DNA from: a bacterium
GTDB taxonomy: Bacteria > Patescibacteriota > Dojkabacteria > SC72
NCBI GenBank assembly: GCA_022840695.1
Contig: JALHDC010000001.1
Span: 169,281-233,280, forward strand
Reading direction: 5' to 3'
Length of the DNA: 64,000 bases
Both the position numbers and the translations under genes were made by a program. The notes below the pieces were generated by a model, which saw only the letters and a program-made list of their open reading frames with translations, searched no databases and was not told the origin of the DNA. Positions 4,714-36,704 of this stretch are shown piece by piece; positions within the stretch are counted from its first letter, which is position 1; each line of letters begins with the position of its first letter.

Positions 4714-5214
4714 TTAATATTCTATAGGTGTATTGGATTCTATGAAGTTCAATACATAGAAATCAAAGAGAAATTTGTTAGTGAATAAATATTCGGATTT
4801 GTTAGACGAGCTGGTAATTGTAACATTATTTTCAATGTATTTGTAAACAATTTTCAATTGATCTTTAGTCGTAATGATCTTGCAATTGTAAGTACTTTGG
4901 AAAAGATGTCCAACAAAATTATATTTTTTGTTGAAATATTTTGTATATCTGGAGCTAATCTTTTGCATTACAGTTGCAATATTAACTTTTCCCTTTTGTT
5001 TTACTAATATGTGGTAATGGTTTGGTAGGAGACAATATGAAAGAATATCAAAATTGTTGGTTTGGAAGTGGTAGTGTAGTAGATTTTTAAAGAATAGGTA
5101 ATCTTTATTGCAAAGAAATATTCTCTCTTTTCTATTTCCCCTGTTATATAGATGTATAAGATAGGAACTTCTAGAAATTGTTTTAAATGTTTTTTTCATA
5201 ATTAGTTCTACCAA
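4714..5214 (-). mobile_element. REP-associated tyrosine transposase (RAYT) / IS200-like Y1 HUH transposase, 166 aa, antisense between secY and adk
   Basis: HUH motif LPNHYHILV. Also RAYT-like blocks (YLIHLYNRGNRKERIF, VGHLFQSTY, IVYKYIENN). Paralogous to the gene at 21882-22313. Confidence 0.7.
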
Positions 5215-19797: not shown

Positions 19798-20838
19798 ATG
19801 AATATATCGGAATTCAAATACAACCTACAAGAGCAATTAATTGCACAATATCCTCCCAAAAAAAGAGGTACTACTAATCTTCTTATTTTGGAAAAGGAGA
19901 GTGGAAATATGGAAGATAAAAAATATTTCAATATTCCAGAATATATAGAGGAAGGGGATATAGTTGTTCTTAATGAAACGAAAGTGATAGATAGCAGGAC
20001 ATATTTTCTAACAACGAACAGAAAAAAGGTAGAAGTACTATTTTTAGAAGAAAGAGGAGAAGATACTTGGTATGTGCTAATAGGAAGAGCTAAATATGTC
20101 AAGAAAAAAGATTTTCTTGTTAATGAAGATTCGGAAAATATCCAAATTGAAATATTAGACAGAGAAGGAAATGGATTTCTAATCAAATTTCTAAAAGGAA
20201 ATAGCGAAGAACTTTTTGAAAAATATGGCCATACCCCGCTTCCTCCTTACATGAAAAGGCCAGATGAACAAAGCGATCATGAAAGATACAATACAGTATT
20301 TTCAAAACTACCTGGGGCAGTGGCAGCACCAACTGCAAGTCTTAACCTCACAGATGAAATATTAAAAGAAATTGAGAAGAAAGGTGCAAAGATAGTGAAA
20401 GTGGAACTAAAGGTGGGATGGGGCACATTTGCACCAATTAGGGAAGAAGATATAGAAGATCATCAAATACATGAGGAATATATCCATATATCGAAAGATA
20501 GCACAGAAAGTATTAATGAGGCAATATTAAATAATGGAAGAGTTTGGGCATTTGGTACAACAGTAGCAAGGACATTAGAAAGTGTTGCATACGAAGATAA
20601 TTCAAGTGGAAAATATCTAGTTAAAGAGTACCAAGGAAAAACATCTCTCTACATATATCCAGGTTATAAATGGAAGATTATTGATTGTTTAGTTACTAAC
20701 TTTCATATGCCTGACTCCTCATTAATACTACTTGTAAGCTCATTTGCAGGGAAGGAAAATATTAAAAATGCATATCTGCATGCAATTGATAATAAATACA
20801 AATTTCTAAGCTATGGTGATAGTATGTTAATAATTTAA
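19798..20838 (+). CDS. queA: S-adenosylmethionine:tRNA ribosyltransferase-isomerase
   Basis: 346 aa. Conserved QueA blocks (LQEQLIAQYP, GAVAAPTASLNLT, GTTVARTLES, NFHMPDSSLILLVSSF). Confidence 0.95.
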   Translation: MNISEFKYNLQEQLIAQYPPKKRGTTNLLILEKESGNMEDKKYFNIPEYIEEGDIVVLNETKVIDSRTYFLTTNRKKVEVLFLEERGEDTWYVLIGRAKYVKKKDFLVNEDSENIQIEILDREGNGFLIKFLKGNSEELFEKYGHTPLPPYMKRPDEQSDHERYNTVFSKLPGAVAAPTASLNLTDEILKEIEKKGAKIVKVELKVGWGTFAPIREEDIEDHQIHEEYIHISKDSTESINEAILNNGRVWAFGTTVARTLESVAYEDNSSGKYLVKEYQGKTSLYIYPGYKWKIIDCLVTNFHMPDSSLILLVSSFAGKENIKNAYLHAIDNKYKFLSYGDSMLII

Positions 20839-20840
20839 TT

Positions 20841-21872
20841 ATGAATGATCTAAATAGATTAAAAAACGAATACTTCTTCATGCCAGATGCAACTAGAGGT
20901 GCTGTTAGATATTTAACTACTAAACAGCTAAAGGAAACAGGTACAGAAGCAATAGTTACAAATACACTACATCTTCTTATACATCCAGGACCTGATATTA
21001 TTCAAAAGCTTGGAGGGATAAAGAAAATGATGGGATGGGATGGAATTGTACTAACAGATTCCGGGGGTTTCCAAGTATTTTCATTAATTCATTCAAAAAA
21101 ATGGCAGGGAAGTATAGATGAAGACGGTGCCAAATTTAAATCTCCCAGAGAAGGAAATACATATGAGTTAACTCCAGAATCATCAATTGATATACAAATG
21201 AAAATCGGGAGTGATGTGTTAGTTACACTTGATGATTGTAGAAAGAGTGATTTAGAAAAAGAAGAAGCCCAGGAATCAGTTGAAAGAACAATTAAATGGG
21301 CAAAGAGGTGTAAAGATCATTTTGAAAAAGAGTATGGTGGGACGAAGAAAACAGGTAAACTTCTAACTTGTGTCGTGCAAGGGGCAAATTATCCAGATCT
21401 AAGAGCTAGATGTGCGAAAGAATTAGTTTCCATAGGTTTCGATGGCTACAATTTTGGGGGTTTTGTAGTAGATAACGATCAGAAATTGGTTATAGACGAA
21501 ATGAGTGCAGTAATTGGAAATATTCCTAAAGATACTATTCGTTATGCAATGGGAGTTGGAAAGCCGGAAGATATTTTGGAAGCTGCTAGGATAGGGTATA
21601 ACCTTTTTGATACTGTATTGGTCACTAGAAATGCTAGACATGGGACATTGTATACATCCCAAGGGATTGTGAAGATTAACAATAGCTCCATGGCATTAGA
21701 TGAAAAACCTGTTGATCAGAATTGCGATTGCGAATGTTGCAGCAACTACTCTCGGGCATACCTTCATCATATGATGAAGAATGGAGAAGCTGTAGCACAG
21801 ACCTTAGCCACGATCCACAACCTCACCTATTACCAAAAGTTGATTAAGGGTCTGACCCCAGTCTGTCCCTAA
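20841..21872 (+). CDS. tgt: Queuine tRNA-ribosyltransferase. The last ~7 codons and the stop are supplied by the REP-like repeat.
   Basis: 343 aa. LTDSGGFQVFSL, zinc site CDCECCSNYSRAYLHH. The C-terminus ...GLTPVCP* is encoded by gggtctgaccccagtctgtccctaa. Confidence 0.95.
   Translation: MNDLNRLKNEYFFMPDATRGAVRYLTTKQLKETGTEAIVTNTLHLLIHPGPDIIQKLGGIKKMMGWDGIVLTDSGGFQVFSLIHSKKWQGSIDEDGAKFKSPREGNTYELTPESSIDIQMKIGSDVLVTLDDCRKSDLEKEEAQESVERTIKWAKRCKDHFEKEYGGTKKTGKLLTCVVQGANYPDLRARCAKELVSIGFDGYNFGGFVVDNDQKLVIDEMSAVIGNIPKDTIRYAMGVGKPEDILEAARIGYNLFDTVLVTRNARHGTLYTSQGIVKINNSSMALDEKPVDQNCDCECCSNYSRAYLHHMMKNGEAVAQTLATIHNLTYYQKLIKGLTPVCP
21848..21869. repeat. REP-like G/C palindromic repeat (left flank of the RAYT gene), inverted relative to 22354-22376
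   Basis: gggtctgaccccagtctgtccc. Its reverse complement is gggacagactggggtcagaccc, close to 22354-22376 (ggggacagaggagggtcagaccc). Confidence 0.6.
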
Positions 21873-21881
21873 TGTTTGTTG

Positions 21882-22313
21882 CTAGACCTTCGTCCATCGA
21901 TAATCCGAAGGCTTTTTGACGATGCCATCACGAACCGGATTCTGTTTGATATAGCTTAACACCCGCATCTGGTTCTTTTTGTATGGCAAGTAATTGGCAC
22001 TGTACCTTCCTTGAAAGATGTGGCCAACTCTATTTCTTTTTCTGTTTATGTTAACAGCATAACTAGTGGTGACTCTTTGCATATAATTTGATAATTTTTT
22101 AGGATCCTTTCCTGTTTTTATCAAGAGATGAAAATGATTATCCATAATACAATAACTTACAAGCTTTATTTCGCAAATATCTTTGTTCTTGTAAAGTTGA
22201 TTGATGAACAAATTCTTGTCATCAGCATATTTAAATACTTCTTCCTTGTTGTTTCCACGATTGTATACATGGTAAAAACTATTCGGTTTGTAATTCCTTG
22301 GAGCTCTGGCCAT
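21882..22313 (-). mobile_element. REP-associated tyrosine transposase (RAYT, TnpA_REP; IS200/IS605-like Y1 HUH transposase), 143 aa
   Basis: FYHVYNRGNNKEEVF, HUH motif MDNHFHLLI, GHIFQGRY, YIKQNPVRDGIV..PSDYRW. These match the RayT/YafM-type consensus and the gene is flanked by inverted REP-like repeats. Confidence 0.8.
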
Positions 22314-22353
22314 AATCTACTATACCAGCCAGTTGTGAAATTAAGATGAACTG

Positions 22354-22376
22354 GGGACAGAGGAGGGTCAGACCCT
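22354..22376. repeat. REP-like G/C palindromic repeat (right flank of the RAYT gene)
   Basis: ggggacagaggagggtcagaccc, the inverted partner of 21848-21869. Confidence 0.6.
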
Positions 22377-22586
22377 AGAAACAAATCTTCAAAAATGATA
22401 TTATTACAAAAGTCCTTAACAAAGACTCTTTTGGTAATTGGAAGTTTTGATAAAAACATTATTTTTGTATATGAAGTTTAAAATCGGAAAATCAGAGATT
22501 TTTTACTATTTAAATAGCCTCGCGGCTATTCTGTATTCCAAAAGTGTTTAGATAGAAGGACAATTTAAATTGTTAGATAAAAAGAC

Positions 22587-24110
22587 ATGGAAACATTGTT
22601 GTTGATTCTTTTGTCGATAATAGTTACTGCAATAGTTGTTGTCGTTGTTCTTAAAGTCTTTTTCCATTGGGTCGATGTGAATAAGATTCCGGAAAAAGAG
22701 ATAGAGCAAGCCGCAATGAAAATGATGAAAGAAAAATTTGAGAAAGCAGAAAGAGAAGTTGCCGAAATGAAAGCTCAGGAGGAAAGAAAATTGAGGGAGA
22801 TGAGAAAAGAAAGTACTGAGCATGAAGAGATATTGATTGAAAGAGAAAGAAAATTGAATAAGAGATCAAAGATCTTAGATGAAAAGAGTGAAGAATTGGA
22901 AAGTAAGGAAAATTATTTGAAAGAAGGTGTCAAAAAATTAGAAGGAGATAGAGGGCAATTAAAAACTCAGTTGGAAAAAATCTCTGGACTTTCCAGAGAT
23001 GAAGCTAGAGAGAAGTTAATGAAAGAAATTGATCAGGATTTGAAGGAGTATGAGGCTAAGAAGATAAGGCAAGCTGAGAAGAACATAGAAGCTGTTGCCG
23101 AAGAGGAAGCACAGAAGATATTGGTAGAGTCTATGCAAAGAGTTGCAACCGATTATGTAGGGGAAACAACCACTAGAGTTATAAAGGTTGAAGATGACAA
23201 GGTTAAAGGAAGAGTAATAGGAAGAGAAGGAAGAAATATTAGATCTTTCGAGCAAATGACTGGAGTTGATGTCATTGTAGATGAATCTCCAGATGCCATA
23301 GCCCTTTCATCCTTCGATCCATTGAGAAGAGAGATAGCCTATGTCGCTATGACAAAATTAATTGCAGATGGGAGAATTCATCCAGGATCTATAGAAGAAT
23401 CTGTCAAAAGGGCAAAGAACGAAATATCCAAGGAGATAAAGAAAAATGGTCAGATACTTGCAGACGAAGCAGGTTGGCCAGATATGGATATAGGTTTAAT
23501 GAAATTAGTTGGAAAAATGAAGTATAGAACAAGCTATGGACAGTCTCTCATGGCACATACTATAGAGGTTATTAGGTTAGCCGAGGTATTGGCTATAGAG
23601 ATTGGGGCAGATGTTCAATTAGCAAAAAGAGCTGCTTTGCTACATGATGTCGGTAAGGTTTTAACTCATAAGGTTGATAGCCCTCATCATCATATATCTG
23701 GACAGGTAGCAAGAAAATACGGTTTAGATGAGAAGTTAGTAAATGCAATTGAGGCACATCACTTGGATATTGATCCTCAGGGAGTGGAAGCTGTTGTAAT
23801 ATATTTGGCGGATGCTATATCAGGTGCAAGGCCAGGAGCAAGAAAAGATAGCTATGAGCAATATGTACAGAGGATTGAGGGTATTGAAAATGCTGCAAAG
23901 GAAATTGGTGGAGATAAAATCGAAGAGGTCTATGCAATTAAAGCAGGAAGAGAAGTAAGGATAATTGTAAAGCCTAAGTTAGTGACTGATGACGATGCCA
24001 AGGTTATGGCGAAGGATATAGCTCAAGAGATTGAGAGTAAGCAGAGCTATCCAGGTAATGTAGAAGTTACTGTTATTAGAGAAACAAGAGCTGTAGAAGT
24101 AGCAAAATAG
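22587..24110 (+). CDS. rny: Ribonuclease Y
   Basis: 507 aa. N-terminal TM helix, long coiled coil, KH domain (GRVIGREGRNIRSFEQMTGVDVIVDE), HD domain (LLHDVGK...HH). Confidence 0.9.
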   Translation: METLLLILLSIIVTAIVVVVVLKVFFHWVDVNKIPEKEIEQAAMKMMKEKFEKAEREVAEMKAQEERKLREMRKESTEHEEILIERERKLNKRSKILDEKSEELESKENYLKEGVKKLEGDRGQLKTQLEKISGLSRDEAREKLMKEIDQDLKEYEAKKIRQAEKNIEAVAEEEAQKILVESMQRVATDYVGETTTRVIKVEDDKVKGRVIGREGRNIRSFEQMTGVDVIVDESPDAIALSSFDPLRREIAYVAMTKLIADGRIHPGSIEESVKRAKNEISKEIKKNGQILADEAGWPDMDIGLMKLVGKMKYRTSYGQSLMAHTIEVIRLAEVLAIEIGADVQLAKRAALLHDVGKVLTHKVDSPHHHISGQVARKYGLDEKLVNAIEAHHLDIDPQGVEAVVIYLADAISGARPGARKDSYEQYVQRIEGIENAAKEIGGDKIEEVYAIKAGREVRIIVKPKLVTDDDAKVMAKDIAQEIESKQSYPGNVEVTVIRETRAVEVAK

Positions 24111-24180: not shown

Positions 24181-24489
24181 ATTTTTTACTCAGAATGTAA
24201 CAAAATACTTACTGCTTAAGGAAAATATTAACATATCTACTGAAAAGTGTTGATACATAAGGGTTTTAGATGGGGCCAGACCCTATTACTTTTTAATGAT
24301 TTGTACAAAAATATAATTCATTAAAAAATGCTATTAGATCAAACTTTGTAGCTAATTTGCTATTTACCCTATAATAAATATCAGCCTTGACGAAATGTTG
24401 AATATACAATATTTTAGAAGTGGATATACACAAATTCCTTTATTTACAGTGTTTGTGTATAGTATCTCTAAGAAAGGAGGCATCATGAA

Positions 24490-35295: not shown

Positions 35296-35865
35296 ATGAG
35301 TTTCTTCTTAGGGTTTTCATTAAATAATGACTCTATTGACTCTGTTGAAAAAATTAGGGAGGAAGTAGGCAAAGTATTTGATGGATTCGAAATTCCTGTA
35401 AGATGGTCTAAAAAAGAAAACTATCACATGACCTTACTTTACTTAGGAAATACATTTCCCTTTTACAAAAAATTTCTACTACAGTACAGACTAAAGAGCT
35501 TAAAATTTAAAAGATTTAAAGTTAAGTTTAATACCGTTAAACTAGGTATATCAAGAAAGTACAAGGAATTAATATATCTTGATCTTTCTCAAGGTGGAGA
35601 GGAAATGAGGAATCTTCTATTGCAAGTAATGGATCTTTTAAAAGTGAAAGATAGTGATAACTTCATCCCCCATCTAACATTGGGTAGAGTTAGCAAAGAA
35701 TTAACTGATCAGGAATATTCAAATATTTGTAGAGATTTGGCTGTAGTTACGAAGAAGTTAGATATTAAATCTGTGGAATTTTATATTGATGATGTGAAAT
35801 TAATGAGGAGTGAGGATGGACAAAATTATGTGTTAATGAATTTCAAAGATTGTTCTAGTATGTAA
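35296..35865 (+). CDS. 2H phosphoesterase superfamily protein (LigT/ThpR-like RNA 2',3'-cyclic phosphodiesterase)
   Basis: Two H-x-T-x motifs (NYHMTLLYLG and IPHLTLGRV), spaced as in LigT. Confidence 0.6.
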   Translation: MSFFLGFSLNNDSIDSVEKIREEVGKVFDGFEIPVRWSKKENYHMTLLYLGNTFPFYKKFLLQYRLKSLKFKRFKVKFNTVKLGISRKYKELIYLDLSQGGEEMRNLLLQVMDLLKVKDSDNFIPHLTLGRVSKELTDQEYSNICRDLAVVTKKLDIKSVEFYIDDVKLMRSEDGQNYVLMNFKDCSSM

Positions 35866-36704
35866 TTATAATCGTTACTCCATTTCGCATGTTTATGCTT
35901 TCTAAACCAAGTCCTTTGCCTCTTTGCATACTGCTTTGTATGATTGATAATTTCTTCTTTTACTTCTTCTATACTTTTTTCTCCTTCAAAGTATCCATCA
36001 AATTCCTGATACCCAATCGTTTTTACAGAAATATATTTATCTAGACCCAATCCCCTAATCCTTTTATTCTCTTCCTCCAAGCCATTCTGAATCATCTTTT
36101 TTACTCTCTGCTCTATATTTTTATTTAATATTTCTTTTGGTTGATCAATGACGAAATAGATATGGTTAAGGGGTCTGTCCCGCTTCTTATCCGGCTTCCT
36201 ATCTAGGTTTTCTATGGCTCGGATTAATCTAACAGGATTCTTAGAGTCGCTCTCATTTAGAGAATTTAATACCGCTGTCGGTATCAGGTGTTGCAATTCA
36301 GTTGTTCCCATCTTGCTAAGCTTTTCCCTTTTTACCTGGTCTATCTCGTTATCAACTAAGTTATATTTGAAAAGGACTGAGTCAATGTACAGGCCTGACC
36401 CGCCTACTAATATCGGTATCTCATTATTTTTAAGATTTTTAAAAACATCCTCTACATCCTTTTGATATTGAAATATACTGTATCCATCTTTTAGTGATAT
36501 ATGACCAAATAGATAGTGAGGGATATTTCCCATCTCGGTTTTTGTAGGTCTTGCAGTTCCTATTGAAATCTCTTTATAGACCTGTTTGGAGTCTGCATTG
36601 ATAATAACTCCATTTATCTCTTTTGCTAATTTCATAGCGATGGAAGATTTCCCAGAGGCAGTTGGGCCAGCTATTACAATTATCGATCCGGAATATTCAA
36701 GCAT
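35826..36704 (-). CDS. miaA: tRNA dimethylallyltransferase
   Basis: P-loop IIVIAGPTASGKSSIA, then NADSKQVYKEISIGTARPT. Confidence 0.9.
   Translation of the reverse strand: MLEYSGSIIVIAGPTASGKSSIAMKLAKEINGVIINADSKQVYKEISIGTARPTKTEMGNIPHYLFGHISLKDGYSIFQYQKDVEDVFKNLKNNEIPILVGGSGLYIDSVLFKYNLVDNEIDQVKREKLSKMGTTELQHLIPTAVLNSLNESDSKNPVRLIRAIENLDRKPDKKRDRPLNHIYFVIDQPKEILNKNIEQRVKKMIQNGLEEENKRIRGLGLDKYISVKTIGYQEFDGYFEGEKSIEEVKEEIINHTKQYAKRQRTWFRKHKHAKWSNDYNYILEQSLKFINT

Follow-up and report, generated by a model that had tools for sequence, protein, structure and literature searches.

The window analysed here is a stretch of 64,000 nucleotides (contig JALHDC010000001.1, 32.5% GC) from a member of the Dojkabacteria (candidate division WS6, candidate phyla radiation [CPR]). 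Between tgt and rny it contains a cassette of 528 bp, which consists of a gene for a 143-amino-acid (aa) Y1/HUH tyrosine nuclease and two short, GC-rich inverted repeats that form its outer ends (Table 1). The reading frames of tgt and of the nuclease gene are convergent, and rny (22587-24110) lies on the far side of the cassette from tgt and is transcribed away from it. A first-pass annotation had described this locus as a gene for a REP-associated tyrosine transposase (RAYT) bracketed by inverted repetitive extragenic palindromic (REP) sequences. Our analysis points to a different type of element, and the cassette is probably a TIRtron, the combination of a TIRYT-type nuclease gene with its terminal inverted repeats (TIRs).

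Table 1. Features of the tgt-rny junction, with positions in the window
Feature	Position	Strand	Remarks
tgt, queuine tRNA-ribosyltransferase, host gene	20841..21872	+	Pfam TGT, E 1e-111; cassette supplies the stop and the 7 codons before it
Whole inserted cassette (putative TIRtron)	21848..22375		Block missing from L097, L098, and L099, where tgt abuts rny; flanks align on both sides
Left terminal inverted repeat	21848..21869	+	GGGTCTGACCC + cAGTCTGTCCC, two tandem 11-nt units; codes for Tgt residues 337-343
Inner spacer, 12 nt	21870..21881		Contains the tgt stop TAA (21870-21872); lies between convergent stop codons
Probable TIRYT-type Y1/HUH tyrosine nuclease gene, 143 aa	21882..22313	-	HUH motif H60/H62, catalytic Tyr Y121, N125
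Inner spacer, 40 nt, upstream of nuclease gene	22314..22353	-	Conserved TGGTATAGT at 22319-22327 (minus strand), 5 nt before ATG
Right terminal inverted repeat, non-coding	22354..22375	-	Minus strand is GGGTCTGACCC + tccTCTGTCCC(C)
Native tgt-rny spacer, outside the element	22376..22441	+	Promoter-like site abutting the right arm; conserved block AAAATGATATCATT…GTCCTT…TTTTGGTAATT

The ends of the cassette were defined by comparing loci that have it with loci that lack it. All nine occupied loci fetched (L001, L003, L005, L037, L054, L100, L116, L171, and L173) had an orthologue of the 143-aa protein (56-94% identity, 143-145 aa) between tgt and rny, and in every one of them Tgt had a repeat-encoded tail. 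In the window this tail, GLTPVCP, is read from the left arm, and the stop codon is the first triplet after it. The codons had been recognized as repeat-derived in the first-pass annotation; the stop, which had been placed in the repeat as well, lies inside the cassette and outside the repeat. Among 120 Dojkabacteria Tgt proteins, the tail that follows …YYQxLI was of two kinds. It was either repeat-encoded (KGLTPVCP, KGLTLL, GLSQV(CP), RGLTRV, or GLS) or native and of the …KxLNxxI type (KKLNKDI, KDLNSNL, or EKLNNR, and longer forms that start alike, …TLNELRPQLQSF…). In three loci with native tails (L097, L098, and L099), rny followed 180-225 nt after tgt with no gene in between, and not a single repeat unit was present in 24 kb. 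When these empty sites were aligned with the window, the left flank matched up to …TTGATTAA(G), and the match of the right flank began at TAGAAA…AAAAATGATAT, a stretch that in the empty sites comprises the tgt stop and the spacer. The block specific to the window stands in place of an 18-22 nt native tail, and no target-site duplication was visible in the alignment. Because related loci with a native Tgt tail have neither the gene nor the repeats, positions 21848-22375 represent one discrete insertion of 528 bp. Through the insertion, tgt lost about 6 native codons and gained 7 from the repeat, together with a stop from the inner spacer of the cassette, and both neighbouring genes stayed intact. 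The first-pass annotation had left it open whether an element had inserted into the 3' end of tgt and rebuilt the last seven or so residues, or whether tgt naturally ends in such a repeat, in which case orthologues could share the C terminus without a nearby transposase. The comparison of orthologues decides for the insertion, as the loci without the gene (three examined) have native tails.

The native x-L-N tail presumably matches the canonical C-terminal helix of Tgt. We rejected the idea that native tails are solo repeats that decayed towards AT, because x-L-N also opens the long-tailed variants found in Dojkabacteria (…TLNELRPQL…). Tail variants such as …YYQDLRLRV-stop in the protein P0101 suggest that the peptide itself is unconstrained; this tail, which is known from the protein only, may end at a TGA within a repeat unit that is read in another frame. 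One of the empty-site relatives also differed upstream of tgt: in L097 (2430-4526) fmt is directly followed by tgt, and the other loci examined all have queA at this position.

The arms of the cassette are GGGTCTGACCCCAGTCTGTCCC on the plus strand (21848-21869) and GGGGACAGAGGAGGGTCAGACCC at 22354-22376, the latter reading GGGTCTGACCCTCCTCTGTCCC on the minus strand of 22354-22375. Each arm has 22 nt; extended by one base to 23 nt, the two are complementary at 20/23 positions (87%) and 484 nt apart, and they were the top inverted repeat of the region in an inverted-repeat search. The pattern GGGTCTGACCCNNNTCTGTCCC matched exactly twice in the window with 3 mismatches allowed, and shuffled sequences gave an expectation of 0.00. 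With 68% GC, compared with 32.5% for the window, the arms stand out clearly, and the presence of inverted, GC-rich repeats around the gene was thus correctly recognized in the first-pass annotation. Both arms are built from a quasi-palindromic 11-nt unit of the form GG(G)WCWGWCC(C), two of which follow each other in tandem (GGGTCTGACCC, then nnGTCTGTCCC). The left arm fits the motif GGGGWSAS with GGGGTCAG (minus strand, 21852-21859) and the right arm with GGGGACAG (22353-22360). This 8-mer is not enriched in the window (5 found, 4.5 expected) and is a weak feature by itself. No GT[AG]G tag was found at the arms, the adjoining bases being TTAA and CTAG. Folded as DNA, all four strands of the arms gave weak structures of -4.2 to -4.9 kcal/mol that were not significant (z -1.4 to -2.0; 8-23 of 200 shuffles folded as well), and the putative stem retains two T·T mismatches. 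When more distant orthologous loci are compared, the units differ in orientation and type, and no pairing is preserved, as seen from the arrangements GGGTCAGACCC-GGGTCAGACC in L005, TCTGTCC-TA-GGACAGA in L171, and GGTCTGTCC-TAGA-TCTGACCC in L173. The weak folds, and the fact that the tandem 11-nt unit and not a stem is conserved across species, led us to reject a REP hairpin in each arm. Instead, the missing GT[AG]G tag, the poor hairpins, and the fit to GGGGWSAS identify the arms as TIRs of the TIRYT kind. A site scan found no terminator-like site and there was no Rfam match at E up to 1, and we rejected the arms as a terminator or structured RNA. Searching the literature for the repeat yielded nothing beyond unrelated primers and similar entries.

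The 143-aa ORF (open reading frame) matched Pfam Y1_Tnp over its full length (E 3.6e-10), and the signatures named in the first-pass annotation (YHVYNRGN, NHFHLLI, GHIFQGRY, and DYRW) are all present. In an alignment with 20-26 homologues, residues H15, H60, H62 (the latter two forming the HUH motif), N90, G97, Y121, and N125 were invariant. Judged by these conserved residues, the Y1/HUH enzyme should be catalytically intact. NCBIfam model NF047646 (REP_Tyr_transpos) was covered completely with a score of 78.3 bits, compared with its cut-off of 80, and transpos_IS200 did not match the protein. A search of the PDB with the single sequence produced only a spurious match to a Plasmodium antigen, and a family profile was required; with this profile the best match was E. 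coli TnpA-REP (4ER8, E 1.2e-11), and ISDra2 TnpA was found with E 1.5e-3. The AlphaFold model of the protein (pLDDT 92.3, pTM 0.86) gave the same best match in Foldseek (4ER8, TM-score 0.81, root mean square deviation 2.6 Å over 142 columns), and the TM-scores for the TnpA proteins of IS608, ISDra2, and IS200 were about 0.6. We then compared the protein by blastp with the TIRYT and RAYT reference sequences of PMC3733652 (Additional file 5). The closest was the TIRYT gbm2474 from G. bemidjiensis (35% over 141 aa, E 8e-31), and the TIRYTs dau2153, rba2408, pfs148A, sml1152, and pca3049 were 31-32% identical (E 1e-27 to 3e-23). The RAYTs pfs3939 from P. fluorescens (24%, E 1.5e-13) and b228 from E. 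coli (21%, E 2e-4) were more distant. The identity to TIRYTs (31-35%) spans the full length of the protein.

TIRtrons were described by Di Nocera (2013; PMC3733652), who distinguished RAYTs flanked by GTAG REPs from TIRYTs flanked by long TIRs that often share GGGGWSAS, and who found that copies of the TIRs form a (moderately) repeated family in some hosts only. TIRYTs correspond to TnpAY1 subclass 2.1 of Quentin (2018; PMC6006769), the second-largest TnpAY1 subclass in that survey, and to RAYT group 1 of Bertels (2017; PMC5581495). The motifs given for subclass 2.1 are NHVH or NH[YF]H, W[EQ] or FQ, and YIELNP or Y[IV]HLNP, with Y---NP as the signature of class 2 (PMC6006769). The window protein has NHFH (residues 59-62), FQ (100-101), and YIKQNP (121-126), in which the Y---NP signature is exact and the middle residues deviate from the consensus of subclass 2.1. 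The greater similarity of the protein to TIRYTs than to RAYTs, the GGGGWSAS motif, the lack of GTAG, the weak folds, and the very low number of repeat copies together argue for a TIRtron and against a classical REP/RAYT system. Hence, the cassette is probably a TIRtron, with a TIRYT-type Y1/HUH nuclease (TnpAY1 subclass 2.1, Bertels group 1), cognate TIRs, and the general mode of action outlined below. As such it adds a clear-cut case to a class that is known but has received little study, and it is not a new kind of element or system. The known TIRtrons resemble it in having a Y1/HUH gene between non-GTAG terminal inverted repeats, in the motifs GGGGWSAS, NH[YF]H, FQ, and Y..NP, in low copy number, and in repeat copies that sometimes occur as dimers or clusters. 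Unlike these, the window cassette resides in a CPR host, a group not named in the text of PMC6006769, and it overlaps and re-codes the end of a gene of an essential pathway, with occupied and empty alleles that define the unit to the nucleotide.

Our proposal for the mode of action is as follows. In a Dojkabacteria ancestor, the whole unit, with the outer ends of its repeats as its exact limits, would have inserted between tgt and rny, immediately before the tgt stop and the promoter-like site of rny, and it would have stayed there as a single copy. By analogy with TnpA-REP and IS608 TnpA, a dimeric HUH/Tyr enzyme would recognize the repeat units on single-stranded DNA (ssDNA) and cut and rejoin at the unit borders. 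This would move or rearrange repeat units, and the whole cassette would have been moved at least once. The few extra copies elsewhere in related genomes, including copies that lie in frame in tsaD, are consistent with a movement of units. With its core-only enzyme of 143 aa, the Dojkabacteria unit would be the smallest version of a TIRtron in this work.

The gene and its repeats have both been maintained. In comparisons of the window with L054, L001, and L003, dN/dS of the nuclease gene was 0.04-0.10 at a synonymous divergence (dS) of 1.1 to saturation, showing that the gene is under strong purifying selection; its GC content of 35% is near that of the genome. At this saturated synonymous divergence the two arms were still 87-100% identical (left arm, 95-100%; non-coding right arm, 87-100%), and for the inner spacers the identity was down to 53-77% when the most distant pair was compared. 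The right arm, although non-coding, is thus kept as well as the coding left arm, and both stay GC-rich against AT pressure. The retention of two 22-mers with 68% GC in an AT-biased genome indicates a function at the DNA level, so that in this genome selection acts on the repeats besides the gene.

We searched larger collections for further copies of the repeat. These scans required an exact match to 19 bases and missed diverged copies, and the copy numbers are therefore lower bounds. In JGI metagenomes at least 90 stretches were found, about a dozen of which are low-GC Dojkabacteria-like contigs, including some with copies away from the gene. A related contig of 760 kb has at least 3 exact copies and another of 330 kb at least 4; on both contigs, two of the copies flank the gene. 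Additional copies are present inside tsaD (L069, L077, L088), as a doublet in the valS-rnj spacer (L025, L043, L072), in the pheS-rplT spacer (L011, L027), and at two more sites (L084, L088). Copies of the repeat outside this locus, for which the first-pass annotation had suggested a search, thus exist in related genomes. The copies in tsaD are polymorphic: TsaD proteins that are 80% identical differ by a loop insert of 31 aa after HMEGHLLSG. The long allele (L077:10143-11246, L088:1629-2732) contains four units and a 44-nt spacer, all in frame (GSDPGLSL…GSYQGLSL), and the short allele (L174:2501-3511) has a single unit, GGGACAGACCCC, in the opposite orientation (GTDP). These tiny CPR genomes appear to tolerate repeat-encoded peptides in tRNA-modification enzymes, the tail of Tgt and, in relatives, the loop of TsaD. 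In this they resemble the Rickettsia palindromic elements (RPEs) and the intragenic REPs (PMC3733652), which are likewise short, GC-rich units tolerated in frame. RPEs differ in carrying a CGTC tag and in lacking a transposase of their own, whereas the window units would be cognate to the Y1 gene beside them. In the divergent valS-rnj spacer (L025:7880-7985, L072:6290-6400) the arms of the doublet are about 45-60 nt apart, and in L072 the doublet is enclosed by a further inverted repeat of 10-11 nt, CATCCACACAA / TTGTGTGGATG. L025 and L037, the latter identical to the window, come from one metagenome.

The remaining JGI stretches are contigs of 55-73% GC with the motif in tandem arrays of 11-12 nt period, and four of them adjoin homologues of the protein. 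Among species-representative genomes the exact scan found at least 70 stretches, more than 45 of them in one Pseudomonadota metagenome-assembled genome (MAG), where they often form perfect palindromic doublets (…GGGGACAGACCGGGGTCAGACCC joined directly to GGGTCTGACCCCGGTCTGTCCCC…). This MAG encodes a homologue, L121, which is 28% identical to the window protein (alignment A1) and 51% identical to the TIRYT pfs148A from P. fluorescens. Its gene is flanked by four-unit arms with the polarity seen in the window, with GGGTCTGACCC…TCTGTCCCC on the upstream side and GGGGACAGA…GGGTCAGACCC on the downstream side. Because the 22-mer of the window recurs around L121 in unchanged polarity, both its sequence and its polarity are conserved between phyla in this protein family. 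Such conservation is consistent with the repeat being the cognate site of these enzymes and extends past the 8-nt GGGGWSAS of PMC3733652. It makes the 22-nt repeat, which the window has in common with distant proteobacterial homologues, a concrete substrate for biochemistry. A Burkholderiales MAG (JANLXC01; L133, L134, L144, L152, and L164) has the 22-mer within a longer palindrome, GGGGTCGTAGCGGGG-TCTGACCCCGGTCTGT-CCCCGCTACGACCCC, which contains GTAG and may be a hybrid of a GTAG-type REP stem and TIRYT-type units.

Several observations weigh against the TIRtron interpretation or against parts of it. The protein ends at residue 143, directly after the core (…DYRWTKV), and like all its Dojkabacteria orthologues it has no C-terminal helix-turn-helix (HTH)-like domain, which is typical of subclass 2.1, with a median length of 238 aa (PMC6006769). 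Subgroup 2.1.2 is heterogeneous and includes proteins with or without this domain (PMC6006769), and its absence therefore makes membership less probable without excluding it. As the arms do not form convincing hairpins, the recognition of ssDNA hairpins known for TnpA-REP and IS608 may not apply to them. The window contains no further full copy of the repeat, only a lone unit inside miaA, which gives no sign of ongoing mobility in the host genome. Occupied sites lack the 18-22 nt of the native tail, and a simple Y1-type insertion, which deletes nothing, cannot alone explain this junction; it would fit only if the ancestral tgt ended right after …LIK. Occupied and empty loci are interleaved in the trees of Tgt, QueA, and Rny, which makes a single ancient insertion followed by pure vertical descent too simple. 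Finally, the literature searched for TIRYT and TIRtron reports no experimental demonstration of TIRYT activity.

Four other explanations of the locus were considered. In a classical REP/RAYT system (REPtron), the arms would be REP hairpins belonging to a genome-wide REP/REPIN population that is spread by a domesticated RAYT. The near cut-off score of REP_Tyr_transpos, the best structural and PDB profile match to E. coli TnpA-REP, also a single-copy gene between inverted cognate repeats, and a few dispersed copies in related genomes, some of them doublets, would suit such a system. We nevertheless think it quite unlikely, because the protein is clearly nearer to TIRYTs than to RAYTs (16-21% identity to the E. 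coli protein) and because hundreds of copies, a GTAG guide, and a stable bulged hairpin characterize the REPs of E. coli, whereas the window arms have no such tag at their foot, weak hairpins, and a handful of copies. The orientation of units in the arms flips between species without keeping the pairing, there are 0 extra copies in 64 kb and 1-2 extra exact copies (lower bounds) on the contigs of 330-760 kb, and more than 45 copies of the 22-mer occur only in a Pseudomonadota MAG. What stands of the architecture proposed in the first-pass annotation is a gene between inverted repeats; the assignment of these repeats to REPs does not. An insertion sequence (IS) of the IS200/IS605 type that is currently active and transposes as a unit would account for a discrete block with sharp ends and without target duplication, as is usual for Y1 elements, and for its patchy presence among relatives; the HUH/Tyr fold is shared with the TnpA proteins of IS608 and ISDra2. 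However, IS200/IS605 elements are multi-copy, have asymmetric subterminal hairpins and a Y..Q motif, and often carry tnpB, whereas the cassette has terminal inverted repeats, the motif Y..NP, no tnpB, and no transpos_IS200 match. Moreover, all nine occupied loci have the cassette at the one tgt-rny site, the window has one copy with the only other homologue there being 32% identical, and orthologues that are 56-94% identical with dS above 1 indicate old residence and not recent copies. An active IS is thus highly improbable.

The repeats could also be host cis-elements, a bidirectional terminator or a site regulating tgt or rny, with the relic of a transposase next to them by coincidence. Their position at convergent gene ends and beside the promoter-like site of rny, and the conservation of the non-coding arm, would be understandable in this case. 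It is hardly credible given that empty loci lack repeats and gene together and keep the native spacer, that terminator-like sites and Rfam matches are absent, and that the 22-mer flanks homologous genes with different neighbours in unrelated phyla. Lastly, the cassette might be fully domesticated, with an enzyme that has ceased to move DNA and whose activity is confined to the two repeats of the cassette, where it would serve, for example, autoregulation or local nicking and recombination at the tgt-rny junction. The single copy, the strong purifying selection, and the maintenance of both arms speak for this, as does the disagreement between trees from the left (queA, tgt) and right (rny) of the cassette; this disagreement rests on only 11 loci and single-gene neighbour-joining (NJ) trees. 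Units at other loci and the polymorphic array in tsaD speak against it, and we regard exclusive action on the two arms as very unlikely.

The history of the TIRtron in Dojkabacteria appears to be complex. The NJ tree computed for Tgt had repeat-type tails interleaved with native ones many times. For 11 loci we compared single-gene NJ trees of Rny, Tgt, and QueA with a split-frequency bootstrap (window 19798-24110 and loci L001-L173), and the trees disagreed across the cassette. Rny showed a split with 100% support between {L097, L099, L100, L171} and the rest, the identity being 80-89% inside each group and 69% across the split. Each side includes occupied as well as empty junctions, and L099 (empty) and L100 (occupied) were sisters with 87% bootstrap. 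Tgt and QueA did not show this split, and there L099 paired with the occupied L171 at 83% and 78%, respectively. In the tree of the nuclease itself only the group of the window, L054, L001, and L003 was resolved, and the rest, 56-66% identical, formed a star. From these few loci we infer either repeated gain and loss at the exact position in tgt or homologous exchange of alleles with and without the cassette through the conserved flanking genes. A bolder and, in our view, unlikely reading is that the 528-bp unit is a minimal self-sufficient Y1 cassette that entered or left the final codons of tgt on several independent occasions within Dojkabacteria. Such repeated entry would require, again with little likelihood, a strict choice of the target site or an exchange of alleles stimulated by the nuclease at its own repeats. 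Though we would not count on it, it might explain the interleaved junctions in both Rny clades, the conflict between left and right trees, and the conservation of repeat and polarity across phyla at about 28% protein identity. If true, TIRtrons would be active site-specific mobile or recombination systems and not relics.

The sequences next to the right arm were examined for signals. The native spacer 22376-22441 is strongly conserved as AAAAATGATATCATT…AAAGTCCTT…CTTTTGGTAATT in occupied and empty loci alike; no consensus RNA structure was found for it. At 22376-22404 it contains a promoter-like match, TAGAAA-17-TATTAT with TG, a consensus match only, and a palindromic sequence, TGATATCA, looks like an extended -10 element in both directions. 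The conserved block 22392-22441 directly follows the tgt stop in empty loci, and its presence there ruled it out as part of the element. Both the block and the promoter-like site are part of the native spacer, and the cassette thus occupies the exact boundary between the tgt end and the likely promoter of rny. Inside the cassette, TGGTATAGT in the spacer upstream of the nuclease gene is conserved in L054, L001, and L003. As a guess from this conservation, it may be a candidate extended -10 promoter that gives a leaderless mRNA. In the 40-nt spacer a consensus promoter scan found nothing stronger than a weak TTCACA/GATTAT site, and sites were no more numerous than in shuffles.

A few minor observations concern repeat units and homologues at other places. 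The lone unit in the window, GGGGTCTGTCCC (36170-36181), lies inside miaA (35826-36704, minus strand), is read as …RDRP…, and may be a relic copy or a chance match. Its core, GGTCTGTCC at 36172-36180, is the only GGWCWGWCC unit outside the cassette (3 units in the window, 0.43 expected). A search of eight related loci for unit-like patterns found none outside the cassette arms. A degenerate unit, GGGGCCAGACCC, is present in the rny-hup spacer (24272-24283). The window encodes another RAYT-like protein, of 166 aa according to the ORF list, between secY and adk (4714-5214, minus strand). The first-pass annotation had counted the nuclease as the second RAYT of the window after this gene. The two are indeed distantly related (32% identity), but the 143-aa protein groups with TIRYTs and not with REP-associated RAYTs, and the closest published relatives of the 166-aa protein are likewise TIRYTs (rba2408 and gbm2474, about 30-32%). 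Around 4714-5214 there were no GC-rich or convincing inverted repeats, only AT-rich chance matches, and an association of the repeat with both genes, which had been anticipated, was not found. Another Dojkabacteria genome encodes a paralogue with 43% identity (150 aa, L172:2501-2953) about 2.5 kb away from the tgt locus, with fmt on one side and a DUF4349 gene on the other; the inverted repeat around it, AGGCCTTGCCT / AGGCAAGGCCT, is perfect over 11 nt and differs from that of the window.

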